64,000 nucleotides of DNA from Alphaproteobacteria bacterium. GTDB taxonomy: Bacteria > Pseudomonadota > Alphaproteobacteria > Rhizobiales > OSC116. Position 1 is the stretch's first letter; each line of letters starts with the position of its first letter. The notes below the pieces were generated by a model that saw only the letters and a program-made list of their open reading frames with translations, was not told the origin of the DNA and searched no databases. Positions 15,611 to 33,167 of this stretch are shown here, piece by piece. The stretch is from positions 8,722 through 72,721 of the forward strand of contig NVQL02000076.1 in assembly GCA_002400495.2 (NCBI GenBank). Reading direction: 5' to 3'. A program made the position numbers and the translations under genes.

Positions 15611-15712
15611 TGAAAAATAATAATTTCATACTGATTCTATTGTTGAATATTTTTTTTGGTCGGTTTAAGCTTAATACAAGTATTTGCTGCAAAAAGGAGC
15701 ATTGGGATTTAT

Positions 15713-16699
15713 ATGGCATCGATTAGTAAAAGGCGTTCATCAGGCCAAGTGAGTGGAGACGAAATAGTGGTTGAGACTGCTTGGCTCTACTATCATGACG
15801 AGCTGAACCAAACCGAGATTGCTAAAAAATTAGATGTCTCGCGGGCTACAGTGGTTAATTATTTGCAAGAAGCGCGAGAGAAGGGGTTTATACGCTTAAC
15901 CTTATCTCCCAGTGTGTTTTCTGGGCATAAATTATCGCATATTTTGCGCAAACGTTTTGGCTTGAAGTCGGTTTTGATTATTCCTGATGGGGACAAACAA
16001 GAAGCTCAAAAAAGTGAGCGTGTTGCCCGTGCTGCTGCTGAATGGTTGCCTGATTTATTGGAAGTTGGTGACACATTGGGTGTGGCTTGGGGGCAAACGT
16101 TATTTCAAGTTGCAGATAGCTTGGTGGCTTCACCCATTAAAGATTTAAAAGTTGTGCAATTGATCGGGTCGATGGCAACGCCTTATGGGTTTGATGCTGA
16201 AATTGTATCTGCTAATTTGGCTTTAGGGTTGGGCGCGCAGTGTGTGAACTTGCATGCTCCTGCAGTTTTAACCAGTGTTGAACTGGCCAAACAGCTCAAA
16301 GCTGAGCCGATTATTTCTAAACAATTAGAAGCTTTGAAAGATTGCAATAAAGCGATTTTTGCAGCTGGTTCTTGCACCCCAGAAAGCCATGTGGTTAGCG
16401 GTGGCTTGGCGACGCAGAGTGACCTTAAATATTATATTTCAAAGGGCGCTGTTGGCGTGCTATGTGGGCAATTTATTGATGGCAATGGCAAGGCTGTCGC
16501 AGGGCCGTTAGAAGAAAGAATAATCGGTGTAGAGCTTAAAAATTTGGTTGGGCTTGAAATGGGCTTGTTGGTGTCTGCAGGTGTTGACAAAGCAAGAGCT
16601 ATGCTAGCGGTTATGAAGGGCGGCTACACAACCCACCTTGTGACCAATGCAACCACAGCGGCCAAGATTATTACCTTGGCCGATGAAGAAAATATCTGA
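15713..16699 (+). CDS. SorC/DeoR-type sugar-binding transcriptional regulator
   Basis: AWLYYHDELNQTEIAKKLDVSRATV HTH; LGVAWGQT and GAVG sugar-binding domain motifs. Confidence 0.92.
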   Translation: MASISKRRSSGQVSGDEIVVETAWLYYHDELNQTEIAKKLDVSRATVVNYLQEAREKGFIRLTLSPSVFSGHKLSHILRKRFGLKSVLIIPDGDKQEAQKSERVARAAAEWLPDLLEVGDTLGVAWGQTLFQVADSLVASPIKDLKVVQLIGSMATPYGFDAEIVSANLALGLGAQCVNLHAPAVLTSVELAKQLKAEPIISKQLEALKDCNKAIFAAGSCTPESHVVSGGLATQSDLKYYISKGAVGVLCGQFIDGNGKAVAGPLEERIIGVELKNLVGLEMGLLVSAGVDKARAMLAVMKGGYTTHLVTNATTAAKIITLADEENI

Positions 16700-16701
16700 A
16701 T

Positions 16702-17796
16702 TTAAGCATGCTCTGGAAATAGTTTTAGCATCGCTTCATTATTGGCTGCACATACGCCGCGTTCGGTGATTAAGCCCGTGATTAAGTTTGCTGGTGTTAC
16801 ATCAAACGCAGGGTTGCCGCCTGGTGTGCTATCTGGCGAAATTTGCACAGATGTTACTGTGCCATCTGCCAATTTACCATATACATGCGTAACTTCTTTG
16901 CCTGTTCTCTCCTCAATGGGGATTTCTTTAATGCCATCATTAACCGTCCAGTCGATGGTGGGTGAGGGCAGAGCCACATAGAATGGAACGTTATTGGCTT
17001 TTGCTGCGAGGGCTTTTAAATAGGTGCCAATTTTGTTGCACACATCGCCTTGCGCTGTGGTGCGGTCTGTGCCGACAATCACCAAATCGACTTGCCCATG
17101 TTGCATCAAATGGCCGCCTGCATTATCGACTATTAAGGTATGTGGCACGCCATGGCCTGCCATTTCCCAACTGGTCAATTGTGCGCCTTGGTTACGCGGG
17201 CGGGTTTCATCGACCCATATGTGAATGGGAATGCCAGCTTCTTGGGCATGATACATGGCCGAGGTTGCGGTGCCCCAATCAACAGTTGCGAGCCAGCCAG
17301 CGTTGCAATGGGTGAGGATATTAATGGTTTCCCCCGGCTTTTTCTTGGCGGCAATCTCGCGAATGATAGCGAGGCCATTTTCGCCAATTTTTCGGTTAAT
17401 TTCGACATCTTCATCGCAGATTTCTATGGCTAATTTATAGGCGGCTTCGAGGCGCTCGTTTGGGGCGAGGGGCAATAAGACAGATTTTACACGGTCGAGC
17501 GCCCATCTTAGGTTGATGGCGGTCGGGCGAGTTTTGTTGAGCGCTTGCCAAGATTGTTCTACATATGCATCGCTCGTGTCTTCGGCCATGGCTAAAGCCA
17601 TACCATATGCTGCGGTTGCGCCAATAAGTGGGGCGCCACGCACCAGCATGTCGGCAATGGCTATTTCGGCATCTTTGCGGCTGGTTAAATCTACGATTTT
17701 AAATTCGTGTGGCAATAAGCGTTGTTCAATTATTTTTACAGTGCGCCCATCATCATCAAGCCAGATTGATCTATAATGTTTGTCTTGTACTTTCAT
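16702..17796 (-). CDS. mtnA: S-methyl-5-thioribose-1-phosphate isomerase
   Basis: [41 protein letters not shown] and NPAFDVTP motifs. Confidence 0.95.
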
Positions 17797-19061
17797 AGCT
17801 TGCTGTCTTTCTCAATTTTTACGATAAATTGGTTGATATTGTCTATATTTTCAAATTTTTTGCTTTGAGTTATGAGCTTGCGCCCCATGGCGATGCAGTT
17901 TTTTTCGACATTGGCGCGCGCTTTAATGTCTTCAATTGTATCAATTTCCATAATGTGCGCGAGGCCGATGGTGCGCCTGATCATCTCGGCACCCGCAAAG
18001 CCGATGGCGTCTTGCCAAATTGTGGTTAGCAGTTGGGTCAGAGCCTCGTCGCTAGCGTTTTGATGGCCTTGGTCTTTGAATAATTTGTCTTCAAATAAAA
18101 TACCATTGCGTTCTGTTTGCCAAAGGTTTGAAAATTCTTGGGTAAATGATATCCAAATTTTTTCGACTATTTTTAGAATCCATTTGCGGTAATCATCACG
18201 ATTGTCATCGGTAGTTTGATGACCTTGTTGCGCAAAATAGGCCATCCAAAAATTAGCGAGTAGCATGCCGACATCAAAACCTATAGGACCGTAAGTGGCA
18301 AATTCGGGGTCAATTATCGACGTTTCATTTTGCGTGACCATGATTGATCCTGTATGCAAATCGCCATGCAGTAGGGTTTCATTTTGAGTGAAAAATTTAG
18401 CTTTTAGAATTTGAACGGCTATTTTTAATTCAACGTCTTTACGTAGATCGCTGACCACTGCGTCTAAAGCTGGGGAATTAATATTATTGCTGTCAGCATC
18501 GTAATAGGGGTCGGTAAATACCAGATCTTCAGTTATGTTGCAAAGGGCTACATTGTCGGAAAATATGGCTAAATCGGCCTTAAAAGCAGGAGCGGTCAGT
18601 GAGTAACTTGAGCCTCGAAATAACGTTTGAGCGCAGAATATACCCATATCATGCGCTAGGTTTTTGTGTTTTATGCCGTCTTTTAAGCTATGGCGTAAAA
18701 TAACGTGTGGCTGCATAAATTGCATGACCAAAATAGCTTGTTTTTGGTTGAAATAATAAACCTCTGGAACCAAATTATTTGTGCGCTCTGCTTGACGCAC
18801 TAAAGCCTCATGTTCAAAGAAAGCGCGCTTTAAAGTTAGTGGCCAGCTTTCGCCCACCACGCGGACATAGGGCAGTGCTTGTTTGACGATTAATTTGCCT
18901 TTTGGGCCTTGTACAATGAAAACTAAATTTAAATTGCCATCGCCAACTTCATTTGAAGTCCATAAATTAGGGTCGTCACCAAGCCTTGCTTTTAGCGTGT
19001 TAATGTCGCCCAATCGGGTGCTAAGTGTTTCAATTGTTAACTCTTTATAGTCTTCCGACAT
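17793..19061 (-). CDS. mtnK: S-methyl-5-thioribose kinase
   Basis: [34 protein letters not shown] and EMIRR motifs. Confidence 0.95.
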
Positions 19062-19210: not shown

Positions 19211-20764
19211 ATGGGTAAAGTTAATTCATCGATAAAACTAACTGGGCTTGAAAAGAGTTTCGGCTCAAACCGTGTTCTACGCGGCATAGATTTAGATATT
19301 CCTGCAGGGGAGGTCACCATTTTAATGGGCGCAAATGGTGCAGGAAAATCTACCTTGGTTAAAGTTATGTGCGGTGTGCATAAGGCGGATTCTGGCACGA
19401 TATATTTGGCGGGAGAAGAATTTAATCCACAGACACCCGCTGAGGCCATCAAGGCCGGCATCGTGACTGTGCATCAAAATATTAATGATGGTGTGGTGCC
19501 TGATTTAGATGTTGCGTCTAACCTTATGTTGGACGTATTGGCGAACCCTCATAGTTCGGTTTTTTTATTGCCGTCGAAAATTAGAAAATCGGCGAAACAA
19601 GCGGCCGAAAGGCTTGGGCTTGATTTGGATATGAGAGCGCCCGTACACAGCTTATCGCTTGCTGATAAACAGCTTGTTGCAATCACCCGCGCCATGGCTC
19701 ATGAGCCTAATTTACTTATATTGGATGAACCAACTTCGTCGCTGTCTTTATCGGAAACCCAAAGATTATTTGAATTGCTAGATAGGCTGAAAGCGCGTGG
19801 TGTGGCGATATTATATATTTCTCATCGTATGTCAGACATTAAACGTATGGCAGACCGCATTGTTAGTATGCGAGATGGCGAAGTGAGTGGTGTGTTTGAA
19901 GGTGATGATTTAGATTATATCGGTGCGGTAAATGCCATGCTTGGGCGTAAAATAGCGGATGTTGATATACAGATTCCTGAAGTTGGTGCGCCCGTATTGG
20001 AGCTTGAAAATATTCAATTATTGCCTAGCTCGAAGCCATTTTCGTTGGCAGCGCATAAAAACGAAATTATTGTGATTACAGGTTTGGTTGGCGTTGGGAA
20101 ATCGCTACTTGCTTCGGTTTTATTTGGGCGCGAAGCTTTGTTCAAGGGTGAGATATCCTTGAATGGCCAAAAATACAATCCTAAAAATATCACCGATGCG
20201 ATTAATGAAGGGGTGTTTTTATGCGCCAAGGACCGTGGCACGAATGGCATCATTCCAGAATTTAATATCAGTCATAATATATCACTGCCATTTTTATCGA
20301 CATTATCGAAATTTGGCTTTATTGGCCGCGGCGCGGAACGAGGTTTTGCCAAAACCGCCATAAAAGATTTGGGCATTATTTGCCAAGGTGAAGATGACAA
20401 TATTGAAGAACTTTCTGGCGGTAATCAACAAAAGGTCATGGTGGCTAGATGGTTGATGAAAAGCTCAAAATTACTAATTTTAGATGAACCTTTCCAAGGT
20501 GTTGATATTGCAGCGCGGCGCGATATTGGCAATAAATTACGCGAAACCGCCAAGGATAGAGCGACGATTGTTTTTGTCACAGAATTGGATGAGGCGCTTG
20601 AAATAGCCGATCGAATTTTTGTGATGTCAGAACATGGCGTGGTGGGCGAGCATAGAAATATGAATGCGGATGCTGATTTGATATTGGCGCAAGTTTTGGG
20701 TGATCAGGTTATGGATAAACGGATGAATAAGAATATTGGAATTAGTGAAGGAGCTGCCTTGTGA
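19211..20764 (+). CDS. Sugar ABC transporter ATP-binding protein (RbsA-like)
   Basis: GANGAGKST, LDEPTSSL, LSGGNQQK; start moved to ATG 19211. Confidence 0.92.
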   Translation: MGKVNSSIKLTGLEKSFGSNRVLRGIDLDIPAGEVTILMGANGAGKSTLVKVMCGVHKADSGTIYLAGEEFNPQTPAEAIKAGIVTVHQNINDGVVPDLDVASNLMLDVLANPHSSVFLLPSKIRKSAKQAAERLGLDLDMRAPVHSLSLADKQLVAITRAMAHEPNLLILDEPTSSLSLSETQRLFELLDRLKARGVAILYISHRMSDIKRMADRIVSMRDGEVSGVFEGDDLDYIGAVNAMLGRKIADVDIQIPEVGAPVLELENIQLLPSSKPFSLAAHKNEIIVITGLVGVGKSLLASVLFGREALFKGEISLNGQKYNPKNITDAINEGVFLCAKDRGTNGIIPEFNISHNISLPFLSTLSKFGFIGRGAERGFAKTAIKDLGIICQGEDDNIEELSGGNQQKVMVARWLMKSSKLLILDEPFQGVDIAARRDIGNKLRETAKDRATIVFVTELDEALEIADRIFVMSEHGVVGEHRNMNADADLILAQVLGDQVMDKRMNKNIGISEGAAL

Positions 20765-21774
20765 AGCAAGCAAGTTTGAGTAAAGACAAAATTAAAGCTG
20801 TTGCCATTCGCTATGGATTTTTAACCTTGCTCGCTGGGTTGGTGTTGTTTTTTAGCCTATCTGCGCCCGGTTTTGCGACACCGTTTAGTGCGGTGTTTAT
20901 ATTTCAGTCGGTGGCGATTACGGGTATTTTGGCGTTGGGTGTCACTGCAACTTTGGTGGTTGATGGGTTTGATTTGTCAATTGGTTCTATCGCCACATCT
21001 AGCTTGATGTTGTCGGCCTATATTATGGTGGTGCTAGAGCAGAATGCTGTTGTGGCAGTTATTGCTTGTTTGGCCATGGGGGCCATCGTTGGCTTGGTTA
21101 ATGGTGTTTTAATTGTCTATATGCGAGTGCCCGATTTGCTGGCTACTCTTGGTATGATGTTTTTGCTGATTGGTTTACAGCGCATTCCAACCGAAGGCCG
21201 CTCTATTGCTCAAGGCATGACACTACCTGGTGGCGAAACCGCTACGGGGGTGTTTTCTAAGTCATTTTTGGCATTGGGGCGTCATAAATTTGATTTTTTC
21301 ATAGAAAATTTCATTCCATTTTCAGTCATTATATTCGTGGTGATTGCGGTTTTAATTTGGTTGTATTTTGAATTTACCCGTTATGGGCGGGTTATGTATG
21401 CGATTGGCTCTAACGAGCGTGCCGCTGGCTTAGCTGGTGTGCCCGTGCATAAATATAAAATTATTGCCTATATGATTTCAGGCGTTTTGGCCTCAGTTGG
21501 TGGTATCTTGTTGGCTGCGCGTTTGGGTCGGGGGGACATCGCTTCGGGCAATAACCTATTGCTCGATTCGGTGGCGGCGGCGTTGATTGGTTTTGCGGTG
21601 CTTGGAGCGGCAAAACCTAATGCATTTGGCACTGCCATTGGTGCGTTGTTTGTCGGTATTTTATTGCAAGGTATGACGATGATGAACGCGCCTTATTATA
21701 CGCAAGACTTTGTAAAAGGCGCGGTATTGGTTGTGGCTTTGGTGTTTACTTTTTCACTATCAAATCGACGGTAA
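20761..21774 (+). CDS. Sugar ABC transporter permease (RbsC-like)
   Basis: GFDLSIGS, LATLG and YAIGSNERAA motifs. Confidence 0.92.
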   Translation: MKQASLSKDKIKAVAIRYGFLTLLAGLVLFFSLSAPGFATPFSAVFIFQSVAITGILALGVTATLVVDGFDLSIGSIATSSLMLSAYIMVVLEQNAVVAVIACLAMGAIVGLVNGVLIVYMRVPDLLATLGMMFLLIGLQRIPTEGRSIAQGMTLPGGETATGVFSKSFLALGRHKFDFFIENFIPFSVIIFVVIAVLIWLYFEFTRYGRVMYAIGSNERAAGLAGVPVHKYKIIAYMISGVLASVGGILLAARLGRGDIASGNNLLLDSVAAALIGFAVLGAAKPNAFGTAIGALFVGILLQGMTMMNAPYYTQDFVKGAVLVVALVFTFSLSNRR

Positions 21775-21845: not shown

Positions 21846-22898
21846 ATGAAAATAACCAGACGTATATTCACTTCGATGGTAGCAGGCGTGGTGTTAGCCG
21901 CAACTGGGATCATTGGAAGTGTGTCTGCAGCGGATATGCCTGCGCCATTTGACAAGCCAAGCGAAGTGAAAATTGCTTTGGTGCGTTATCTTTCGACGGG
22001 TGATTTTTTCCAAGCTTATTTGGCGGGTGTTGAATCACAAGCCAAAATATTGGGTGTTGATTTGCGTATTTTGGATAGCCGTCAGGACGCGGCTTTGCAA
22101 GCTGATATGGTTGACCAAGCGATTGCCTTGGGTGTCGATGGCATTATTGTGCAACATGGTTTAACAGAATCTATGCAAGAAGCTGTGAAACGGGCGATTG
22201 CCGCTGGCATTAAAGTGGTGGCATTTGATGTGGACGTCGAAAACCCAGATGTGCCACAAATTGAACAGTCTGACTTTATGTTGGCTAAAATGGCGCTAGA
22301 TCAAGCCATTATTGACAATGGCACAACATTTAATGCTGGCTATGTTTATGTTCCGGGCATTGCGCCGCTTGACCGTCGTGATGTGGCGTGGAAAGAAGTT
22401 AAAGACGCCAATCCAGGCATTAAACAACTTGCAGAATTTGGTACGTTGGACAACCCCATCGCCAACTCTGTTGCCAACCAAGCGCGTTCTGTTTTGGCGG
22501 CTAACCCAACCATTACGGTTATGTTTGCACCTTATGACGAATTTGCCAAAGGCGTAAAGATTGCGGTTGATGAAGCGGGTATGACCAGCCAAGTTAAGAT
22601 TTATTCGGCTGATGTTTCGACTTCTGATATTTCTGCAATGCGTGAAGAAGGAAGTGCATGGGCTGCGACGGCTGCGACAAACCCAGCAGTTGTTGGTGAG
22701 GTTTCGGTTCGGGTGTTGGCAATGTTGCTTGCGGGCGAAGATCCTGGTCACAATGTTGTGGTTCCCCCAACTTTGATCACGCAAACAATGCTGAATGATG
22801 GTGACATTAAAAACATGAAAGAGCTATCTGCAAAGATACCTGCATTTGCGCATGCAGATGTGGCTGTTCCAGCATGGATGCCGCTACCTAAACGCTAA
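21846..22898 (+). CDS. Sugar ABC substrate-binding protein
   Basis: Signal peptide, Peripla_BP-type pattern (GIKVVAFD), GGGAG RBS. Confidence 0.9.
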   Translation: MKITRRIFTSMVAGVVLAATGIIGSVSAADMPAPFDKPSEVKIALVRYLSTGDFFQAYLAGVESQAKILGVDLRILDSRQDAALQADMVDQAIALGVDGIIVQHGLTESMQEAVKRAIAAGIKVVAFDVDVENPDVPQIEQSDFMLAKMALDQAIIDNGTTFNAGYVYVPGIAPLDRRDVAWKEVKDANPGIKQLAEFGTLDNPIANSVANQARSVLAANPTITVMFAPYDEFAKGVKIAVDEAGMTSQVKIYSADVSTSDISAMREEGSAWAATAATNPAVVGEVSVRVLAMLLAGEDPGHNVVVPPTLITQTMLNDGDIKNMKELSAKIPAFAHADVAVPAWMPLPKR

Positions 22899-22920
22899 AA
22901 TGTAGTAGATATGAATGATG

Positions 22921-22952
22921 GGTCGACAAATTAATTTTGTCGGCCTTTTTTT
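22921..22952 (+). terminator. Rho-independent terminator
   Basis: GGTCGACAAA-TTAAT-TTTGTCGGCC stem followed by T7. Confidence 0.8.
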
Positions 22953-23037: not shown

Positions 23038-23970
23038 ATGATGAAAAATTCAAGAACGACTGAGCAGGTGGCTTTGGGCATTCGGCGTCGAGTGTTTGAA
23101 CATACGATACTTAATAATGGTGGCTATTTAAGCCAAGCTTGTTCATCTGCCGAAATGTTGGCATGGTTGTATAATGAAGCGCTTACTATTGGCGATCCGA
23201 CCTTGCCGATGATACCACGTGATTTTTCAGGCGTGCCTTCGGTTAATAATCCTGACTATGTATCTGGCGCAGGATATAATGGCCCTGCAACGCCAGAATA
23301 TGACCGCTTATTCATTGCGCCCGCGCATTATGCCTTGGTGGCTTATGCCACCTTAATTGAAGTGGGGCGAATGGCACCTGAAGGGCTTGAGATGTTTAAT
23401 AAAGATGGCTCATCGGTCGAAATGATTGGGGCTGACCATTCTCCGGGTATGGAGGTTCATAACGGCACGCTCGGCATTGGCCTTTCGACTGCATCTGGCC
23501 TTGCCTATGGCCGCAGAAAACGCGGCGATAAAGGCGAAGTTTGTGTGTTTATGTCTGACGGTGAAGTGCAAGAGGGGCAAACATGGGAAGCGGTTCAAGC
23601 TTGCGCTCATCACGGTATTGATAATGTTTGGGCGATCATGGATGTGAATAATCAGCAATGCGATGGCGCGATGTCGAGTGTAATGGAAGTGCGCGATATT
23701 GCCACAAAATTCAGAGCTTTTGGCGCGGTTGCGGTGGAAATTGACGCCCATGATTTGGACGCTATGCGCCAAGCCAAAGCGGAGCCACATGAGGGGAAAC
23801 CGCTTATTATTTTGGCGCATTCATCGCCGATGAAAGGCATGAAGAAATTGGAAGAAAGATTCCCACGCCTGCATTATGTGCGTTTTAAAAGCCCAGAAGA
23901 ACGTGCTGAATATAATATATCAATCGCCGCGGAGCTTGGTGTTGACCCCGTTGTATATGAAACACATTAA
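23038..23970 (+). CDS. Transketolase-like ThDP enzyme, N-terminal (PP) subunit, divergent
   Basis: GTLGIGLS and the SDGEVQEGQTWEA...DVNN ThDP-binding motif. Confidence 0.88.
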   Translation: MMKNSRTTEQVALGIRRRVFEHTILNNGGYLSQACSSAEMLAWLYNEALTIGDPTLPMIPRDFSGVPSVNNPDYVSGAGYNGPATPEYDRLFIAPAHYALVAYATLIEVGRMAPEGLEMFNKDGSSVEMIGADHSPGMEVHNGTLGIGLSTASGLAYGRRKRGDKGEVCVFMSDGEVQEGQTWEAVQACAHHGIDNVWAIMDVNNQQCDGAMSSVMEVRDIATKFRAFGAVAVEIDAHDLDAMRQAKAEPHEGKPLIILAHSSPMKGMKKLEERFPRLHYVRFKSPEERAEYNISIAAELGVDPVVYETH

Positions 23971-23999
23971 GAATATGACATACATTAAAGGTAGCAAAC

Positions 24000-25004
24000 A
24001 TGGTTGAAATGGTAACACGCCCGTATGCGGGTGCTTTTGAAAAATACGCTTTGGCAAACCCCGATGTAATTTGTGTATCGGCCGATTTAACATCATCTTG
24101 CGAAATTGATGGTTTTAGAGACCGTCACCCTGAGCAATTTTTATCGATGGGCATGGCTGAACAAAATATGATGAGTTTTGTCGGCGGTTTGAACATGGCG
24201 GGATACAGGCCGTTTGTTCATACATTTGGAGTGTTTACCTATAGACGACCCTATGACCAGCTTATGGCATCCATTGCCTATGGGCGCAGGAAAGTGCGCA
24301 TTATGGGTTTTTTGCCGGGCATCACAACACCGGGCGGTATGACGCATCAGGCGATTGAGGATATTTCGGTCATGCGTGCCATGCCCAATATGACCATATT
24401 AGAAACTGGTGATGCCACCGAAGTTGAGTCTATTTGCGCAGCAGCAGATAGCATTGATGGCCCCGTTTATTGCCGTGTTTTGCGCGGCAATGTGCCTCGA
24501 TTATTTGACACGCCGATAAAAGTCGGCGAAATGCGTGAGTTAAGCTCAGGCAGCGATATATTAGTGGTCACTGCGGGCATCACAACCGAAGAGGCGATGC
24601 GCGCGCGCGCGGCATTACAAGATGCGGGTGTGTCTATACGTCATTTGCATTTAAACACGTTAAAGCCATTCGATTCTGAAACTTTGTTGGATCACTTGCA
24701 GTCGGTAAAATACGGGGTGATCACGCTTGAAAACCATGTCGTTACGGGCGGGATTGGTTCGATAGTTGCGGAAACGATTGCAGATGCGGGTATCGCCAAA
24801 CGGCTTATTCGTTTAGGTTTGCAAGATACTTATGCGCATGGTGGCTCGCGTGCTTATTTAATGCGTTATTATGGCCTAGATGCATTGGCCTTAATACATG
24901 CAATTGATGATATGTTGGGCAACTCGACAGGCATAGGTGAAGAAGATTTGAATGCAGCACGTGTAGACGCTGTGCATTCTCTGGCTAAAGCTGAAGGGTT
25001 ATAA
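24000..25004 (+). CDS. Transketolase-like ThDP enzyme, C-terminal (Pyr/C) subunit
   Basis: SADL, GMAEQNM, RRPYDQ, THQAIED and ENH...GGIGS motifs. Confidence 0.9.
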   Translation: MVEMVTRPYAGAFEKYALANPDVICVSADLTSSCEIDGFRDRHPEQFLSMGMAEQNMMSFVGGLNMAGYRPFVHTFGVFTYRRPYDQLMASIAYGRRKVRIMGFLPGITTPGGMTHQAIEDISVMRAMPNMTILETGDATEVESICAAADSIDGPVYCRVLRGNVPRLFDTPIKVGEMRELSSGSDILVVTAGITTEEAMRARAALQDAGVSIRHLHLNTLKPFDSETLLDHLQSVKYGVITLENHVVTGGIGSIVAETIADAGIAKRLIRLGLQDTYAHGGSRAYLMRYYGLDALALIHAIDDMLGNSTGIGEEDLNAARVDAVHSLAKAEGL

Positions 25005-25006
25005 TC

Positions 25007-26122
25007 ATGTCGCGGTTTAATGTGACCTATAAAATATTTGCGGATAATGATAAACATGCTTTGAGCCGTGCCGAAAATATAGCCTTGGAACAAACTGTAG
25101 AAATACCGCGTGACATCGTGCCAAAAGGTTATATTGAAGACAATATATTGGGCAAACTAGAGGATATAACGCGTGCCGATAACCAGAGTTTTAACGCTCA
25201 AATTAGCTACAGCCCTGACAGCGTAGGCAGCGAATTGCCGCAATTGCTAAATGTGATATTTGGCAATAGCGGCATCCAAAAAGGCTTGAAAGTTATCGAT
25301 CTCGAATTGGGTGATGTTTTATCCCAGCGCTTTACAGGTGCAAAATTTGGTATTGATGGCGTGCGTAAAAAAATTGGCCGTTCAAGCGGCGCATTAATTG
25401 CTGCGGTGATTAAGCCACAAGGGTCGAGTGTTGATGAGTTGGCGTTGATTGCCTATCGCTGTGCGTTGGCTGGTGCGGATATCATTAAAGACGACCATGG
25501 GTTAACCAATCAACATATGGCGCCATTTAAAGAGCGGGTTGAGAAGATTTGTGAAGCGGTGGCAAAAGCCAATTTAGAAACGGGACTCAATTGTTTGTAT
25601 TTCCCGAATATTGCAGGCCATAGCGCGGATTTAGAACGATATGCTGAATTTGCTAAGAATTCGGGCGGTGGTGGCGTGTTGGTTATGCCTGGATTATTTG
25701 GGTTTGATGCGGCTTTGCGTTTGGCAAGGGATGATGATTTTAATTTACCGATTATGACGCATCCGAGCTTTTTAGGGCCGTATATTTTGTCTGAAGACAC
25801 AGGTTTTAGCCATGCGATGATGTTTGGTAAAATACAACGTCTATGCGGTGCTGATATTTCGGTGTTTCCAAATGTTGGCGGTCGGTTTGGTTTTTCTGAG
25901 TTGGAATGCCGATCTATTGCCATTGCTTGCAAATCAGATGATGGCATTGGCAAACCAATCATGCCTAGCCCTGGGGGCGGGATGACCAAGGAACGTGCGG
26001 CAGATTTAAAAACCATGTATGGAGACGATGTGGTTCTTTTGCTGGGTGGTTCGTTGCTGCGTTATGGCGATAAAATTGGTGACGGAATTAAAGAAATGCG
26101 CACGGCGCTTGATGCTGTTTGA
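25007..26122 (+). CDS. RuBisCO-like protein (form IV RLP)
   Basis: IALEQTVE, IKPQG, GADIIKDDHGL, THPS and PSPGGG motifs; 371 aa; lacks canonical KPK and KDDE. Confidence 0.92.
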   Translation: MSRFNVTYKIFADNDKHALSRAENIALEQTVEIPRDIVPKGYIEDNILGKLEDITRADNQSFNAQISYSPDSVGSELPQLLNVIFGNSGIQKGLKVIDLELGDVLSQRFTGAKFGIDGVRKKIGRSSGALIAAVIKPQGSSVDELALIAYRCALAGADIIKDDHGLTNQHMAPFKERVEKICEAVAKANLETGLNCLYFPNIAGHSADLERYAEFAKNSGGGGVLVMPGLFGFDAALRLARDDDFNLPIMTHPSFLGPYILSEDTGFSHAMMFGKIQRLCGADISVFPNVGGRFGFSELECRSIAIACKSDDGIGKPIMPSPGGGMTKERAADLKTMYGDDVVLLLGGSLLRYGDKIGDGIKEMRTALDAV

Positions 26123-26145: not shown

Positions 26146-26700
26146 TTAGCAATTCTTGTAAGCTTGGCTTATCCATCCACTTAGCTGCTCATCAACTTCG
26201 TTGATAGAGGTGATGTTAATTCTGTGACTGCACATGTCTTTGACAACCTTGACCCTTGAGTGATTGGTAGAGGCTGGTAAATTAATACCTATTTGAATTC
26301 GTTTTGCTGAAGGCGCTTGGATCAAGGCAAACATTTTGTTTCTGCGAAAGGCAACACCAGTTTTTTGGATGACTTTGGTTATATCATCCCCCATTGCCTC
26401 GCAAATTGCTGCGATCTCATTATATATTGGTAAAAGATGGGCTTTAGAACCTGAATATTGAGTGTTGAAGAGGTTGTCTTTGGATTCGGGACCACCTGCG
26501 CTATATTCGCGAATTCTTGTTGCTAGCAAATTGGCATTTCCATGCCCAAGGCCGTAAGCCGACTTTAAATATTTTAATATTTCCATATGTTTATTCAAAG
26601 AGACAATTTTTGGTTCGGTTGCATGTTGCGCAACTGATTTACCTGTTTGGGTTAAAATATTTGATAACTGCGTTGCGGCAATTTGTTGGTTTTTGTCCAT
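26146..26700 (-). CDS. DUF4287/DUF5655-type protein
   Basis: TGKS...HMEILKYLKSAYGLGHGNAN N-terminal part; CSHRINITSINEVDEQLSGWISQAY C-terminal part. Confidence 0.75.
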   Translation of the reverse strand: MDKNQQIAATQLSNILTQTGKSVAQHATEPKIVSLNKHMEILKYLKSAYGLGHGNANLLATRIREYSAGGPESKDNLFNTQYSGSKAHLLPIYNEIAAICEAMGDDITKVIQKTGVAFRRNKMFALIQAPSAKRIQIGINLPASTNHSRVKVVKDMCSHRINITSINEVDEQLSGWISQAYKNC

Positions 26701-26856
26701 TGTTATTGGTTCCTGAGTGATTGGTTGTTTAAACAGTAATAAATGGGTCGCGCGAATAATTTACAGCTCTGCTTAATTCATATTCCATAAGCATCTGCGT
26801 TGTGTTGAATTTAGATTATCGGAAAATATAAATATGGTATTGTATGAATTTAACAG

Positions 26857-27708
26857 TCAAATTTCTGGTACAAAGCCTGCCGCGCCACTTGCGGTGTTTG
26901 CATTATAGAAAGCTTTTTGTGCCGCTACATATTGAGTGGGCGTATGCCCTGTATGGCGTTTAAAACTTCTAATAAAATGGGCTTGGTCAAACCATCCATT
27001 GTCATTTGAAATGGCTGTCCAATCAATCTCTTTGGAAACATCAAGGCGGTTGAGCACATTTCGCATGCGAAGTAAATTTGACAAGCTTCTTGGGCTTAGC
27101 CCTACCACACGCGTAAATGTACGCACTAACGAGCTGTTCTCCACTCCCATTTTCTGGGCAATATCGGCTATTGGGGTTTTTGGATTGGCTTCTAATATAG
27201 AAACAACGTCGCTACAAAGCTGTTCTCCTACAACTTTCTTGCCAATGTTTTGGCAGAGAAATTGCTCAATTAATCGTGTTTTTTCTTGACCATTATTTAA
27301 TGAGAGTAGCTGCTTCCTCAGGTCCTTAGCGGGTTGCCAAAAATCTAATAATTTTACAATTTTTCCTCTTAATGATGCGGGGGGAATGCCAAATAAACGT
27401 TCCGCACCAATGGCGGTGGCGACGATGCCAACGGCATGGGTTTCGCCAAGGGGTCGGTTGGTTATTGGGGCGTTATGTGGGCCGATAAGCAGGCCTGTTG
27501 AGCTCTGAACTGGTGACTCTAAATGTAATAATGGTGTCTGTTCAATTGCATCACCTAAGATAAATATGGCAACCACCGACCCTGTCGGGGCAATTTTTTC
27601 TTGTTTGTATGGCACGGTGCCTTTGGCAAACCAGATAGATTCAACATAAAGTTTTAAAGTTTCGCTTGGTTTTAATGAATAAAAATCAAATTGAAAATCG
27701 GCTGTCAT
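26857..27708 (-). CDS. AraC-family transcriptional regulator
   Basis: C-terminal GWFDQAHFIRSFKRHTGHTP; VGLSP. Confidence 0.9.
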   Translation of the reverse strand: MTADFQFDFYSLKPSETLKLYVESIWFAKGTVPYKQEKIAPTGSVVAIFILGDAIEQTPLLHLESPVQSSTGLLIGPHNAPITNRPLGETHAVGIVATAIGAERLFGIPPASLRGKIVKLLDFWQPAKDLRKQLLSLNNGQEKTRLIEQFLCQNIGKKVVGEQLCSDVVSILEANPKTPIADIAQKMGVENSSLVRTFTRVVGLSPRSLSNLLRMRNVLNRLDVSKEIDWTAISNDNGWFDQAHFIRSFKRHTGHTPTQYVAAQKAFYNANTASGAAGFVPEI

Positions 27709-28070: not shown

Positions 28071-29192
28071 ATGATGGAAATGAGTCATTCTCCGCTATTA
28101 ATTATTGCTTCTTTTGCGCTTGCAATTCTAGGCTCGTTTACAACATTACGTTTAACATCCAACCTTCGAAATTTTGATATAGCAGCTCGTAAAATACGGG
28201 TTGTGCAGGCTGCCTTTGTATTGGGGGTTAGCATATGGTCAATGCATTTTACTGCCATGTTGGCGGTTAAACTTCCTGTTGTTATTAGTTATGATCCAGT
28301 GCTTACATTGTTGTCGGCATTGATGGCGATTTTAGCCATTGAAGTGGTTTTTTTGTTTTTGCATTTTGGCAAGCGCACAAAATCTAAAGTTTTTATTGCG
28401 GGTATCATCACGGGTGCTGGCATTCTTGGTATGCATTATTTGGGCATGAATGCCATTTCTGCGAATGTGGTGATTGTTTATGATCCACTGGGTGTGGTGA
28501 TCACCATTATTGTGGGTGTTTTGTCTTCTATTTTGGCGATGAAGATTGCCTATGGTGGCGAAAGGTCGTTTTCAAATACCGTTTTAGGGGCGATTATTTT
28601 GGGTTTATCAATGTCTGCTATTCATCACACTGCTATGCATTTTACCATGATGAGTAAAAATGATGCGGTGGCAGATTTAGCGCTTTCACTGTTAAATGGC
28701 GAACAATTGGCTTTACTGGTGGCTATCTCGTCATTCACTTTATCTTGTTTGTTTTTACTTTTAGTGGTTCCTGCCGAAAAGCAGGTATTTGGTGCTGGCA
28801 CGAGTGAAGAGGTGGAAGCCCCTGTTGATATGCCGACAGCTGATGAGCCGCCTGTACAAGAAATTCAAATTCCTTATGAGCAAGAAAATTTACAGAGATA
28901 CCTTCCTATGGGTGAGGTTTATTTCATTCGCGCTAGTGGGCATTACACATATATTGATGATGGCACGAAAGAGCTTTTCTGCCCGTGGTCAATCTCGCGT
29001 TTTAAAGATTGTTTAGACCCCTTGTCATTCATTCGCATTCACCGCAGTTACATTGTGAATAAGGATTATATCAAAGGCATTAAGCGCCGTGGTGATAAAT
29101 CTTATTGCGTGGTGAATAATGACAATCAAGATGAAATCCCGATCTCTCGTTCGCGCATTCACGAGTTTAAGAAGATGCTGCAAGCGAATTAA
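28071..29192 (+). CDS. coxC: MHYT-LytTR membrane sensor/regulator (CoxC-like)
   Basis: MHFTAM, MHYLGM and IHHTAM MHYT repeats; C-terminal FIRIHRSYIVN and IPISRSR LytTR domain; directly upstream of coxM. Confidence 0.8.
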   Translation: MMEMSHSPLLIIASFALAILGSFTTLRLTSNLRNFDIAARKIRVVQAAFVLGVSIWSMHFTAMLAVKLPVVISYDPVLTLLSALMAILAIEVVFLFLHFGKRTKSKVFIAGIITGAGILGMHYLGMNAISANVVIVYDPLGVVITIIVGVLSSILAMKIAYGGERSFSNTVLGAIILGLSMSAIHHTAMHFTMMSKNDAVADLALSLLNGEQLALLVAISSFTLSCLFLLLVVPAEKQVFGAGTSEEVEAPVDMPTADEPPVQEIQIPYEQENLQRYLPMGEVYFIRASGHYTYIDDGTKELFCPWSISRFKDCLDPLSFIRIHRSYIVNKDYIKGIKRRGDKSYCVVNNDNQDEIPISRSRIHEFKKMLQAN

Positions 29193-29361: not shown

Positions 29362-30225
29362 ATGATACCAGGTAGTTTTGAATACCATAGACCACCGACA
29401 ATTAGTGACGCCGTAGGCTTGCTTGTTTCGTTTGGTGATGATGCACTCATATTGGCGGGAGGTCACAGCCTCATCCCGATGATGAAATTGCGCATGGCAG
29501 TGCCAGAATATTTAATTGATTTGCAAGACATTAGTTCGCTTAAGTCTATTTCGGTTGAAGGCGACCAAATAACACTTGGTGCCATGGTGACGCAGGCTGA
29601 GCTGATTGCCTCTAGCGCACTTAGCGAAAAATGCCCTATATTACAAACCACATCTTTGCAAATTGCTGACCCGCAAATTCGTAATGTTGGCACTATTGGT
29701 GGCAATGTTGCCAATGGCGACCCTGGCAATGATATGCCTGCGGTTATGCAATTGTTGGATGCCACTTATACACTGGTTGGGCCAAATGGTGAACGTGATG
29801 TGAAAGCTCGTGATTTTTATGAAACGGCTTATTTTACTGAACGTGCCGATGACGAAATTTTAACGGCGATTAAATTTACCGCACCCGCTGCGGGACATGG
29901 CTCTGCCTATGAAAAGCAAAAGCGTAAAATTGGTGATTATGCCACGGCTGCGGCTGGCGTTGTGCTCACTATGGCAGATGGCATTTGCACTTCGGCTTCG
30001 ATCGGGCTTACTAATGTTGCTGATACGCCGCTTTGGGCTGAGGCTTCGGCCGCGGCTTTGGTGGGTACGTCAGTTGATGAGCCAGCTATAAAAGCGGCTA
30101 TGGACGCGGCGAAAGCGATTGCTGACCCTGCTCAAGATAGTCGTGGACCGCGTGAGTTCCGCATTCATGTCACGGGCATTATGGTGCAACGTGCCATTCA
30201 GCAAGCTGTTAAAAACGCCCAATAA
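29362..30225 (+). CDS. coxM: Aerobic CO dehydrogenase medium (FAD) subunit
   Basis: [29 protein letters not shown] and KRKIGDYA motifs. Confidence 0.93.
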
Positions 30226-30250
30226 TATAACCCCACAAAGGTTTGAGAAA

Positions 30251-30742
30251 ATGCAAAAATTAGATATTAAAATGAATATCAATGGTGCAGATGTCGAGGT
30301 AAATGTCGATTCGCGCACTTTGCTTATTCATATATTAAGAGAAGAGTTAAATATAACAGGCCCGCATATTGGTTGTGACACTACCCATTGCGGTGCGTGT
30401 ACGGTTGATCTTGATGGTAAATCGGTTAAAGCCTGTACAATATTTGCGGGTCAAGCCAATGGCACGACCATCAAAACTATCGAAGGTATGGCCAATGCAG
30501 ATGGCACATTACATGCGTTGCAGGCTGCTTTTAAAGACAATCATGGTTTGCAATGTGGGTTTTGTACCCCCGGTATGATTGTTCGGGCTTATCGTCTGTT
30601 GAAAGAAAATCCGAACCCGACTGAAACTGAAATTCGCTATGGAATTTCGGGCAATCTTTGCCGATGCACGGGTTATCAAAATATTGTCAAATCGATTCAG
30701 GTTGCCGCAACTGAATTGTCCCAACAGGAGGCAGCAGAATAA
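30251..30742 (+). CDS. coxS: Aerobic CO dehydrogenase small (2Fe-2S) subunit
   Basis: [20 protein letters not shown] and NLCRCTGY motifs; start at ATG 30251. Confidence 0.93.
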
Positions 30743-30743
30743 T

Positions 30744-33167
30744 ATGAATGAACAAGCTCCGATTTCGCGCGATGAACGCGTTAAAAAATTAGAAGGCCTT
30801 GGCAGTTCTCGCAAACGGGTTGAAGATGTACGCTTTACCCAAGGCGCAGGCAACTATGTTGATGACATTAAATTGGATGGCATGTTGTTTGGTGATTTTG
30901 TCCGCAGTCCTTATGGTCATGCGCGCATTAAGTCTATTAATACTGAAGCGGCGCTGGCCGTGCCGGGTGTGCTGGCGGTGATAACCGCTGCTGATTTAAA
31001 GCCACTTAATTTGCATTATATGCCGACGTTAGCGGGCGATGTGCAAGCTGTGTTGGCGGAAGAAAAAGTGTTATTCCAAGGCCAAGAAGTGGCTTTTGTG
31101 GTGGCGACAGACAGATATGCCGCTGCTGATGGTGTTGAACTGGTTGAAGTTGATTATGACGAACTTCCAGTGATTAATGACGCCTTTAAAGCCATGGATG
31201 ATGACGCGCCTGTATTGCGCGAAGACATTCAAGACAAAATGGAAGGCGCCCACGGCACACGTAAACATCACAACCATATTTTCAATTGGCAAGAAGGTGA
31301 CAAAGAGGGCACAGAAAAAGCCCTAGCCGAAGCTGATGTTGTGGTTGAGGAGATGATCACTTATCACCGTGTGCATCCTTGCCCGCTTGAAACTTGTGGC
31401 TCGGTTGCATCGATGGATCCAATCACTGGCAAACTTACCGTTTGGGGTACTTTTCAAGCGCCGCATGTGGTACGGACTGTTGCCGCGTTAATTACCGACA
31501 TTCCAGAACATAAAATCCGCATTATTTCGCCTGATATTGGTGGCGGGTTCGGTAATAAAGTTGGGGTTTATCCCGGTTATATTTGCTCAATTGTTGCGTC
31601 AATCGTTACGGGCAAGCCTGTTAAGTGGGTTGAAGACCGCATTGAGAATTTAATGGCTACGGCTTTTGCGCGTGATTATCATATGACGGGTAAATTATCT
31701 GCGACTAAAGATGGTAAAATTACGGGTTTATCGGCACATGTGTTGGCTGATCATGGTGCGTTTGATGCTTGTGCTGATCCTACAAAATTCCCTGCTGGTT
31801 TCTTTCACATTGTGACAGGTTCTTATGATATTCCTGTGGCTCATGTGTCGGTTGATGGTGTTTATACCAATAAAGCGCCGGGTGGTGTGGCTTATCGTTG
31901 CTCGTTTAGGGTGACCGAGGCGGCTTATTTGATTGAGCGGATGATTGATATTTTGGCACGTAAGTTAGATATGGACCCTGCTGAAATTCGGATGAAGAAT
32001 TTCATTAAGAAAGAACAATTTCCGTATAATTCTGCATTGGGTTGGGAATATGATTCTGGCGATTATCACACTGCATTAGAGCAAGCTTTAAAAGCTGTGA
32101 ATTATGATGATTTACGGGCTGAACAAACTGAAAATCGTGCTGCATTTGAGCGCGGCGAAACCCGCAGCCTGATGGGCATTGGTGTGGCATTCTTTACTGA
32201 GATTGTTGGCGCTGGCCCGGTGAAAAATTGTGACATTCTTGGCCTTGGTATGTTTGACTCGTGCGAAATCCGTATTCACCCAACTGGCTCAGCCACTGTT
32301 CGACTTGGTACGATTAGCCAAGGGCAGGGTCATGCGACGACCTTTGCGCAGATTGTGGCATCGGAAATTGGCATTCCTGCTGAAGCCATTACGTTGGAAG
32401 AGGGTGATACTGACACCGCGCCTTACGGCCTTGGTACATATGGTTCGCGTTCAACCCCTGTGGCTGGTGCTGCGACCGCGATGGCGGCGCGTAAAATTCG
32501 CGCCAAAGCGCAAATGATTGCCGCCTATATGCTTGAAGTGCATGAAGGTGACTTAGAATGGGACATTGATCGTTTCCAAGTTAAGGGCAATCCTGAGCTG
32601 CACAAAACCATGGTGGAAATTGCTTTTGCTGCATACAGCTTGGCCGTTCCTGGCTTAGAACCTGGTTTAGAAGCCGTGTCTTATTATGACCCGCCAAATA
32701 TGACTTATCCATTTGGTGCTTATATTAGTGTCGTCGATATTGATGTTGATACGGGCGTTGCCGATGTGCGGAAATTCTATGCACTTGATGATTGCGGTAC
32801 GCGCATCAACCCAATGGTGATTGAAGGCCAAATTCATGGCGGTCTGACTGAAGCGTTGGCCATAGTGATGGGGCAAGACATTAGCTATGACAAGCATGGC
32901 AACATCACTGGCGGTAGCTTGATGGATTTCTTCCTGCCGACTGCGGTTGAAACACCGACTTGGGAAACTGACTTTACCGTCACCCCGAGCCCGCATCACC
33001 CAATTGGTGCCAAAGGCGTTGGTGAAAGCCCCAATGTTGGCGGTGTGCCCGCGCTGTCAAACGCGGTGCATGATGCTTTTGCGCATAAAGGACTGACGCA
33101 TACCCAAATGCCGCATGACCATTGGCGTGTTTGGAAAACAGCTCAAAGCTTAGGCCTTACTGGGTAA
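30744..33167 (+). CDS. coxL: Aerobic CO dehydrogenase large subunit, form I
   Basis: Form I active-site loop VAYRCSFR; GGGFGNK; M-S-L gene order. Confidence 0.96.
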   Translation: MNEQAPISRDERVKKLEGLGSSRKRVEDVRFTQGAGNYVDDIKLDGMLFGDFVRSPYGHARIKSINTEAALAVPGVLAVITAADLKPLNLHYMPTLAGDVQAVLAEEKVLFQGQEVAFVVATDRYAAADGVELVEVDYDELPVINDAFKAMDDDAPVLREDIQDKMEGAHGTRKHHNHIFNWQEGDKEGTEKALAEADVVVEEMITYHRVHPCPLETCGSVASMDPITGKLTVWGTFQAPHVVRTVAALITDIPEHKIRIISPDIGGGFGNKVGVYPGYICSIVASIVTGKPVKWVEDRIENLMATAFARDYHMTGKLSATKDGKITGLSAHVLADHGAFDACADPTKFPAGFFHIVTGSYDIPVAHVSVDGVYTNKAPGGVAYRCSFRVTEAAYLIERMIDILARKLDMDPAEIRMKNFIKKEQFPYNSALGWEYDSGDYHTALEQALKAVNYDDLRAEQTENRAAFERGETRSLMGIGVAFFTEIVGAGPVKNCDILGLGMFDSCEIRIHPTGSATVRLGTISQGQGHATTFAQIVASEIGIPAEAITLEEGDTDTAPYGLGTYGSRSTPVAGAATAMAARKIRAKAQMIAAYMLEVHEGDLEWDIDRFQVKGNPELHKTMVEIAFAAYSLAVPGLEPGLEAVSYYDPPNMTYPFGAYISVVDIDVDTGVADVRKFYALDDCGTRINPMVIEGQIHGGLTEALAIVMGQDISYDKHGNITGGSLMDFFLPTAVETPTWETDFTVTPSPHHPIGAKGVGESPNVGGVPALSNAVHDAFAHKGLTHTQMPHDHWRVWKTAQSLGLTG

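Follow-up and report, generated by a model that had tools for sequence, protein, structure and literature searches.

In a 64,000-nucleotide stretch of an alphaproteobacterial contig (NVQL02000076.1; hereafter, the window), two adjacent genes, TK-N and TK-C, encode the two halves of a split transketolase (TK)-family enzyme and are followed by a gene for a RuBisCO-like protein (RLP). They lie in a compact cluster (15.6–26.1 kb) with a regulator, MtnA, MtnK and a sugar ATP-binding cassette (ABC) importer. Sequence comparisons indicate that the pair is, on balance, probably a thiamine diphosphate (ThDP) enzyme that took over the step after RLP in methylthioribose/methylthioadenosine (MTA) salvage and acts on the RLP product. 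The core of this interpretation, a non-canonical transketolase working with RLP on its product, is well supported by an observed residue pattern, gene contexts, gene fusions, and an alternation of cupin and TK genes, while the chemical detail, namely which substrate is cleaved, how, and what becomes of the C2 unit, is what we infer. The sequence-only reading of these genes, which had proposed an active site suited to a 1-deoxy or 1-methylthio ketose made by the adjacent RLP, was supported in letting the pair work with RLP, as synteny, fusions and the pair's occupation of the cupin's place indicate, but proved too narrow, since the clade also serves pathways free of RLP.

A word-index search gave ~3,900 homologues; the best 120 of them, 77–90% identical and named at most “transketolase”, were examined, and 80 genome loci were taken for counts. 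The organisms are Rhodobacterales and Hyphomicrobiales of marine or saline origin, such as Hoeflea, Maritalea, Pannonibacter, Paracoccus, Ruegeria, and Ahrensia. RLP adjoins TK-N/TK-C in 54 of the 80 loci. MtnK is encoded within the 8-kb flanks in 42 of these 54, usually together with the same ABC importer, and many of the RLP-TK loci with MtnK also carry MtnA and a SorC regulator; a FucU/RbsD-type mutarotase was found in 25 loci. The link extends to relatives whose TK-N is no more than 46–59% identical to that of the window: RLP was present in 8 of 80 metagenome loci, on contigs many of which are short, and MtnK plus MtnA accompanied it in two.

The link also appears within single proteins. 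An exhaustive search of representatives detected a metagenomic RLP+TK-N fusion (P0128, 730 aa), whose cluster mates P0290 (1130 aa, from the transcriptome of Conticribra (Thalassiosira) weissflogii) and P0307 (1066 aa, from the genome of Discostella pseudostelligera) both belong to diatoms and contain RuBisCO_large, Transketolase_N, Transket_pyr, and Transketolase_C domains. P0131 and P0289 are partial RLP-TK fusion proteins. In the diatom proteins, a linker of ~40–60 residues joins RLP to a complete rewired transketolase; the RLP domains are 40–44% identical to the window RLP and have the IIKDDHGL motif in common with it, and the TK part contains the same signature residues as the window pair.

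Of 400 evenly sampled genomes of alphaproteobacteria, 17 encoded a related RLP. The sole RLP of the 17 with 66% identity to that of the window was preceded by a TK pair. The other 16 were 34–40% identical, and a ~150-aa Cupin_2 gene was located directly 3′ of RLP in all 11 of those examined, with a glutathione S-transferase gene beside RLP-cupin in 2 of the 11 and a hybrid sensor kinase gene in 2. In a 44-row RLP tree (trees were built with FastTree, and their supports are local SH-like values only), the 16 cupin-type rows formed one clade with 100% local support, and the TK-linked and fused RLPs fell outside it; the label “cupin-linked” was given to all 16 rows, cupin adjacency having been seen in the 11 examined. 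In the sampled alphaproteobacteria, then, closely comparable RLPs pair either with a cupin or with TK. Since related RLPs take either partner, we read TK as a likely replacement of the cupin that would cleave 1-methylthio-xylulose-5-phosphate. Based on synteny, fusions, and the presence of the TK pair in the cupin's place, the RLP–TK link is very strong.

The best match of the window RLP among solved structures was 3qfw, which we take to be Rhodopseudomonas palustris RLP1, at 221 bits, compared with 143 bits for the MtnW enolase 2zvi. MtnW models scored under their cut-offs (205.7 versus 409 bits and 160.7 versus 513.6 bits). Fifty-two columns invariant among cupin-linked RLPs, including K136, K161-D163-H164, H252, and G324-G325, were conserved in 90% or more of the 65 TK-linked RLPs compared. 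The window protein thus has the features of a DeepYkr-type RLP, i.e., the RuBisCO_large fold, greater closeness to the isomerase type than to MtnW, and the shared catalytic core; it lies, however, in another clade than the cupin-linked RLPs, and its neighbor is TK and not a cupin methylsulfurylase. By these comparisons it appears to belong to a sister clade of the cupin-linked (DeepYkr, Rhodospirillum rubrum-type) RLPs and is presumed to be a 5-methylthioribulose-1-phosphate 1,3-isomerase, and the comparisons support the earlier claim that the adjacent RLP is of the type making 1-methylthio-xylulose-5-phosphate.

The two proteins of the pair contain three transketolase Pfam domains, each above its cut-off: Transketolase_N (55.8 bits, cut-off 22), Transket_pyr (91.6 bits), and Transketolase_C (70.2 bits). 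The closest solved structures are those of the split TK of Carboxydothermus hydrogenoformans (6yak, E 3.8e-31, and 6yaj, E 1.3e-54), which has the same two-subunit layout and, like the canonical enzymes (E. coli (Escherichia coli) TktA, 2r5n, and the yeast and human proteins), the same fold. The scores against the NCBIfam transketolase equivalog were, in contrast, 134.4 and 191.6 bits versus the required 488 (NF004559), and the pair is below every NCBIfam transketolase cut-off. The score of TK-C against the 1-deoxyxylulose-5-phosphate (DXP) synthase (DXS) model TIGR00204 (dxs) was 155.7 bits versus 466, and no phosphoketolase (XFP) domain was present among the Pfam matches of the pair at E ≤ 0.001.

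Active-site residues were mapped using HMMER alignments and a MAFFT alignment that included the canonical TK and the DXS of the genome as well as relatives; E. coli numbering was carried over through the HMMER alignment of the genome's canonical TK to 2r5n, and the MAFFT mapping agrees with pairwise HMMER alignments to 6yak/6yaj and human TK. In the yeast and E. coli enzymes, H26, H100, H461, and D469 have been linked to donor binding and catalysis, and H100 holds the donor C1 hydroxyl. All four are replaced in the pair. H26 corresponds to Tyr (Y30 of TK-N, in GGYLSQ), H100 to M129 or I130 of TK-N, with His at neither, the phosphate-binding H461 to Leu (L105 of TK-C), and D469 to Gly (G112 of TK-C). 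The H100 register is ambiguous by one column, because the loop at this site lacks one residue relative to the canonical enzymes; another active-site loop is shortened by the same length. The E128 and H134 residues of the H100 loop do not vary and lack an equivalent in the canonical enzymes. Residues retained include H66 (H97), H473 (H116), R520 (R162), the cofactor-activating Glu E411 (E54), the S385 equivalent, and the ThDP/Mg ligands D155 and N185 (in SDGE and DVNN). H261 (H279) and R358 (R7) are also retained; both are one column off in the MAFFT alignment and were read from the conserved LH and “TR” motifs. The sequence-only reading had named the losses at H26 (the GHxG motif), H100/H103, and D469, together with the retention of the ThDP motif and the other histidines, from an alignment made by eye. 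Neither His nor Asp was restored at these sites by the HMMER and MAFFT alignments, and the change at H461 is additional to its list.

The statement that DXS has Phe at the H100 site likewise held for the DXS of the same genome, which has Phe in that column and H53, D434, and R427 at the DXS H49, D427, and R420 columns. At the latter three columns, the TK pair has Tyr, Gly, and Leu, respectively. A hydrophobic side chain in place of H100 would fit CH2-S-CH3 or CH3 at C1 of the substrate, as Phe does in DXS, a member of the transketolase family that handles a ketose with a C1 methyl group; DXS differs in keeping the H26 and D469 equivalents, in having Arg at the H461 column, and in being a single chain. 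By residue and score tests, the pair appears to be a member of the transketolase fold family, yet neither a canonical transketolase nor DXS, and annotation pipelines that count these genes as pentose-phosphate transketolases are probably wrong. Split transketolases of unusual sugar-catabolic operons include the apulose-4-phosphate transketolase AptAB and the sulfo-transketolase SqwGH, which the pair resembles in this general respect; no NCBIfam model of either was matched by the pair.

The residue pattern is conserved. All ten tabulated TK-N sites (eight signature residues and two Mg ligands) are identical in 80/80 genome loci. In TK-C, S27 and E54 are present in 80/80 and L105 in 78/80 loci; R7 is found in 77/80, with Lys in three, and P111, G112, H116, and R162 in 77/80, the missing ones falling beyond contig ends. 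None of the 80 metagenome loci has His at position 129 or 130, Tyr is present in 72/72 of those covering position 30, and the 68 with a TK-C match have neither His at 105 nor Asp at 112. Invariance across the 80 genome loci means that the residue changes are due neither to chance nor to sequencing error, and it argues for an active enzyme under selection. The loss of several canonical catalytic residues might also be expected of a catalytically dead or purely structural or regulatory transketolase relic. We consider this extremely unlikely, since 80/80 loci retain the ThDP/Mg motif, the activating Glu, and three His without variation, TK-N identity across families is 75–90%, homologues number in the thousands, and diatoms maintain the fusion proteins. 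In the TK tree (82 rows), the nearest relatives of the window's pair are an alphaproteobacterial metagenome-assembled genome and Maritalea. Look-ups in the ESM Atlas returned just “putative transketolase” clusters for the enzyme, and cluster look-ups of its distant relatives gave no informative names. In most of a set of remote loci (L123–L164, TK-N 31–35% identical), Y30, Q33, and H97 were kept, the H100 loop read P-M-S...Y, and TK-C had G-Y instead of P-G ahead of THQ.

The proposed route would begin with the import of methylthioribose by the ABC transporter (accompanied by a FucU-like mutarotase in many relatives) and its phosphorylation by MtnK; alternatively, methylthioribose-1-phosphate would be supplied from the cell's own MTA through MtnP. 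MtnA would yield 5-methylthioribulose-1-phosphate, which RLP would convert to 1-methylthio-D-xylulose-5-phosphate and, by analogy, 5-deoxyribulose-1-phosphate to 1-deoxyxylulose-5-phosphate. In the TK-like enzyme, ThDP would add to C2, the C2–C3 bond would be broken, and glyceraldehyde-3-phosphate (G3P) would leave. The remaining ThDP-bound C2 fragment, CH3S-CH2-C(OH)=ThDP, would have its thioether β to the carbanion. Our first preference for its fate is β-elimination of methanethiolate, giving enol-acetyl-ThDP, acetyl-ThDP, and finally acetate or acetyl-phosphate, with methanethiol returned to methionine through O-acetylhomoserine sulfhydrylase. As a second preference, the fragment would be protonated and released as 2-(methylthio)acetaldehyde, and as a third, the C2 unit would be handed to an aldose acceptor. 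β-Elimination is preferred because it would need no further enzyme (none is conserved in RLP-type operons) and would free methanethiol for the sulfhydrylase. In this specific form, the pair would be a ThDP-dependent 1-methylthio-xylulose-5-phosphate lyase converting the RLP product to G3P, an acetyl unit (acetate or acetyl-phosphate via acetyl-ThDP), and methanethiol, a reading that we put forward tentatively, as possible rather than probable.

The rest of the genome (91.6% complete) is consistent with such a route and, next to synteny, fusions, and displacement of the cupin, provides a fourth independent line for the RLP–TK link. One MtnA and one RLP were found, both in this operon; MtnP over its cut-off is encoded on another contig, and an O-acetylhomoserine sulfhydrylase is present (616 bits). 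A search of this genome revealed neither MtnB nor MtnN over cut-off, and no ARD/MtnD. Thus, as far as found, the steps past MtnA in this organism run through RLP and TK. The flanks of the compared RLP-type loci contained no further conserved enzyme gene, which fits products entering central metabolism directly.

The chemistry proposed for methanethiol has mechanistic analogues only: in phosphoketolase and in sulfoacetaldehyde acetyltransferase (Xsc), which belongs to a different ThDP fold family, a ThDP-bound C2 carbanion loses a β group (water and sulfite, respectively) to give acetyl-ThDP. In the flanks of the compared loci, neither pta nor ack is conserved beside TK. Transfer of the C2 unit, or synthesis as carried out by DXS, would be the default chemistry of the family and would give another 1-methylthio- or 1-deoxy-ketose phosphate; the hydrophobic residue in place of H100, as in DXS, is in line with it. 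Such a product would keep the methylthio group and call for more enzymes, none of which is conserved in the operon, and with the DXS equivalog score far below its cut-off and the DXS equivalents of D469 and H26 lost, we regard this outcome as quite unlikely.

As described in PMC5893883, the MTA-isoprenoid shunt uses the DeepYkr RLP to convert 5-methylthioribulose-1-phosphate to 1-methylthio-xylulose-5-phosphate and its ribulose epimer in a 3:1 ratio, and a cupin methylsulfurylase, arranged with RLP, consumes the former. Set against the shunt in R. rubrum and R. palustris, the window cluster is alike in that MtnA would feed an RLP of the same broad type (KDDH motif) and that the next enzyme is encoded alongside. 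It differs in that the next enzyme there is a glutathione-dependent cupin and here a predicted ThDP enzyme, in that the RLPs fall into separate clades, and in the products, which would be G3P and a C2 unit here and are DXP there. The same paper describes a dihydroxyacetone phosphate (DHAP) shunt, in which MtnK/MtnP, MtnA, and the class II aldolase Ald2 produce a triose phosphate and a methylthio-C2 fragment, and the use of freed methanethiol by a sulfhydrylase in the known shunts (PMC5893883). The route proposed here has in common with the DHAP shunt its first steps and a C–C cleavage to a triose phosphate and a methylthio-C2 unit, but would place RLP isomerization first, depend on ThDP for cleavage, and yield G3P instead of DHAP.

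An alternative is that TK acts on a ketose-1-phosphate such as 5-methylthioribulose-1-phosphate, in parallel to or ahead of RLP, with C2–C3 cleavage and expulsion of phosphate to give acetyl-ThDP. The MtnA product is available from the same operon, phosphate is a good leaving group, and loss of the His that binds the C1 hydroxyl would suit a C1 phosphate ester as well. Yet TK holds the genomic place of the cupin, which acts after RLP (PMC5893883); the distal phosphate-binding Arg pair is retained, and the RLP-free contexts described below carry C5 kinases (XylB-like) and 5-phosphate epimerases, not enzymes of 1-phosphate chemistry. This substrate is therefore very unlikely.

Several results weigh against our interpretation, in which TK acts after RLP on the RLP product. 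In 17/80 loci, an orthologous TK with an identical signature occurs without RLP, and the gene divergent to the TK pair encodes a cytoplasmic S/N-oxide reductase of the BisC family (858 bits versus a subfamily cut-off of 1017). One set of these loci also encodes a SorC regulator, an AraD-like L-ribulose-5-phosphate 4-epimerase (244.5 versus 251 bits), a Zn-dependent polyol dehydrogenase, and a XylB-like kinase (277 versus 380 bits), sometimes with a sulfatase, co-oriented with TK-C; another set has a second sugar ABC importer and a Zn-dependent alcohol dehydrogenase (Zn-ADH). In two hybrids (L046, L054), the reductase and RLP modules surround one TK pair. Reductase-type rows are nested among RLP-type rows in the TK tree, where well-supported branches force at least seven switches. 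Five out of five reductase-type genomes lack a RuBisCO_large match as well as MtnA and MtnK over cut-off (MtnP is present in three of the five), and TK is, for this reason, independent of the RLP product there. More distant members with the same signature occur in phosphotransferase system (PTS)/polyol and UlaE/AraD-type operons that offer no sulfur or deoxy-sugar hint, so that the residue changes may reflect something other than the C1 substituent. The D469-to-Gly and H461-to-Leu changes are not explained by the proposed substrate, because its far end is the same as that of xylulose-5-phosphate. As to the fate of the C2 unit, the β-elimination route is a product of chemical reasoning only, and an aldehyde dehydrogenase gene next to TK in one marine context suits aldehyde release better.

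The distant contexts are as follows. In L091, L096, L095, and L119, TK-N is 45–54% identical and has the same signature, and the operons include PTS (EIIC-GAT, EIIA), SorC, Zn-ADH, and class II aldolase-epimerase genes; L095 combines TK with UlaE-like and AraD-like epimerases, a PfkB kinase, and an MFS transporter. The epimerases of the distant relatives exceed their cut-offs (UlaE-like 3-epimerase, 222.9 versus 200 bits; AraD-like 4-epimerase, 255 versus 251 bits). Marine contigs of ~33% GC (L102:99-10293, L106, L107, L108, L116; TK-N 67–74% identical) carry no RLP; contigs of the L102 type encode the aldehyde dehydrogenase, a FucU-like mutarotase, TK-N, TK-C, BtpA/SgcQ-family and M42 (SgcX-like) peptidase-family proteins, a XylB-like kinase, and ABC permeases. 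The RLP-free settings share enzymes that end in a D-xylulose-5-phosphate-type skeleton, which fits the proposed cleavage site; the C1 substituent may not always be sulfur or hydrogen. The claim that loss of H100 marks a donor without a C1 hydroxyl goes further than these comparisons allow, since the same residues occur in relatives lacking RLP, MtnA, and MtnK genome-wide and in operons ending in the ordinary xylulose-5-phosphate skeleton.

These contexts would also suit an ordinary ketose-phosphate transketolase, acting on xylulose-5-phosphate or a close analogue as the entry to the pentose-phosphate pathway in pentose/pentitol operons, with residue changes due to drift or altered acceptor preference. 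The phosphate-binding Arg and the cofactor machinery are retained, same-signature relatives lie beside enzymes that form D-xylulose-5-phosphate (UlaE-like and AraD-like epimerases, XylB-like kinases, PTS, and Zn-ADH), and the reductase-type genomes have neither RLP nor MtnA. On the other hand, four donor-binding and catalytic residues are replaced in every member, the equivalog scores are less than half of what is required, RLP fusion and replacement of the cupin are left without explanation, and the genome already encodes a canonical TK elsewhere (contig C118, 816 bits, cut-off 682), in addition to a DXS (785 bits, cut-off 466). An ordinary transketolase is accordingly unlikely. We retain the interpretation of the window pair as an enzyme acting on the RLP product; the presence of its clade in RLP-free genomes, however, makes the substrate class wider than RLP products. 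In the reductase-type loci, a second pathway seems to feed the same enzyme, perhaps one for a pentose or pentitol with a sulfoxide group. The S-oxide reductase points to such a compound, for example oxidized methylthioribose, which dehydrogenase, kinase, and 4-epimerase might convert to 1-methylthio-xylulose-5-phosphate.

All cells that produce polyamines or rely on certain S-adenosylmethionine-dependent reactions generate MTA, whose known salvage routes include the universal dioxygenase pathway, the RLP/cupin isoprenoid shunt, and the DHAP shunts. Recycling of this S-adenosylmethionine by-product through a transketolase-type partner of RLP would be a further route, and would assign a function to the many strongly conserved proteins that databases label “transketolase”. 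If the lyase proposal is correct, MtnK/MtnP, MtnA, RLP, and TK would make up a complete oxygen-independent route taking all MTA/methylthioribose carbon and sulfur to central metabolism, on which many alphaproteobacteria of the sea would draw, as would diatoms with their single RLP-TK fusion protein. The wider clade would then consist of “C1-substituted xylulose-5-phosphate lyases” acting on 5-thio and 5-deoxy pentoses and perhaps on pentoses with other 5-substituents, and would include a branch with prior sulfoxide reduction. Bacteria of the Roseobacter group and the Hyphomicrobiales that live with algae commonly carry the pair; this distribution, together with the diatom fusion, means that the pair may bear on marine exchange and recycling of reduced sulfur (methylthioribose, methanethiol). 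The pair would also be a natural example of transketolase active-site re-tooling, of interest to ThDP enzyme engineering. A full-text literature search found no paper linking transketolase with RLP, methylthioribose, or 1-methylthio-xylulose-5-phosphate (the original R. rubrum RLP/cupin work and the DeepYkr thesis are outside the literature searched, and an earlier mention is possible), and no description of a diatom RLP-transketolase fusion. The sequence-only reading had likewise known of no description of the reaction.

Features of the window cluster (window coordinates) and of reductase-type loci
Feature	Position or loci	Strand	Evidence and remarks
SorC/DeoR-type sugar-phosphate-binding transcriptional regulator	15656..16699	+	Pfam Sugar-bind, 193 bits, and helix-turn-helix (HTH); with the cluster in 31/80 loci
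MtnA, S-methyl-5-thioribose-1-phosphate isomerase	16702..17796	-	TIGR00512, 423 bits (cut-off 279); NF004326, 484.9 bits
MtnK, S-methyl-5-thioribose kinase	17793..19061	-	TIGR01767, 499.5 bits (cut-off 275); within flanks in 44/80 loci
Sugar ABC transporter ATPase, two ABC domains	19211..20764	+	ABC_tran, 173 bits, two stretches
Sugar ABC transporter permease	20761..21774	+	BPD_transp_2, 133 bits
Periplasmic sugar-binding protein, ribose-binding-protein-like	21846..22898	+	Peripla_BP_4, 113 bits; orthologue in 49/80 loci
Terminator-like hairpin, 11-bp stem and T run, 3′ of the binding-protein gene	22920..22946	+	Promoter/terminator scan
TK-N, ThDP (PP-domain) subunit, 310 aa	23038..23970	+	Signature Y30, Q33, H97, E128, M129, I130, H134, D174, N204, H279
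TK-C, pyrimidine-binding and C-terminal-domain subunit, 334 aa	24000..25004	+	Signature R7, S27, E54, L105, P111, G112, H116, R162
RLP, TK-linked clade	25007..26122	+	Start 2 nt past the TK-C stop
Reductase-type loci, set with SorC regulator, 4-epimerase, polyol dehydrogenase and kinase	L035, L036, L039, L040, L043, L053, L055, L058, L068, L071		e.g., L040:1379-11633
Reductase-type loci, set with second sugar ABC importer and Zn-ADH	L026, L037, L051, L062, L063		e.g., L037:31-9947

MtnK and MtnA clear their equivalog cut-offs, and the front end of methylthioribose salvage is thus present in the cluster. The periplasmic binding protein is presumed to be a receptor for methylthioribose or 5-deoxyribose. 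The start of the ABC ATPase gene is uncertain, the reading frame being open from 19160 and the first ATG being at 19211. The hairpin 3′ of the binding-protein gene is a possible attenuator, on weak evidence; the promoter/terminator scan found no more terminator-like sites in the region than in shuffled controls.

Genes 3′ of RLP were considered as parts of the system and rejected. The interval that follows the operon (26146-27708 on the minus strand and 28071-29192 on the plus strand) encodes a membrane protein with MHYT repeats fused to a LytTR DNA-binding domain, an AraC-family regulator, and a DUF4287/DUF5655 protein, and 3 kb downstream of RLP (29362-33167, plus strand) there is a three-subunit xanthine-dehydrogenase-family (aldehyde) oxidoreductase, whose FAD subunit scores 259 bits with a “glyceraldehyde dehydrogenase beta” model (cut-off 350). 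The DUF5655/DUF4287, AraC, MHYT-LytTR, and oxidoreductase genes were excluded because each is conserved near TK in 0 or 1 of 160 loci. At the other side of the cluster, a gene at ~6903-7457 on the plus strand (G000:C43:15624-16178) has a weak, below-cut-off match to the MTA phosphorylase family (62 bits) and probably encodes another purine nucleoside phosphorylase.

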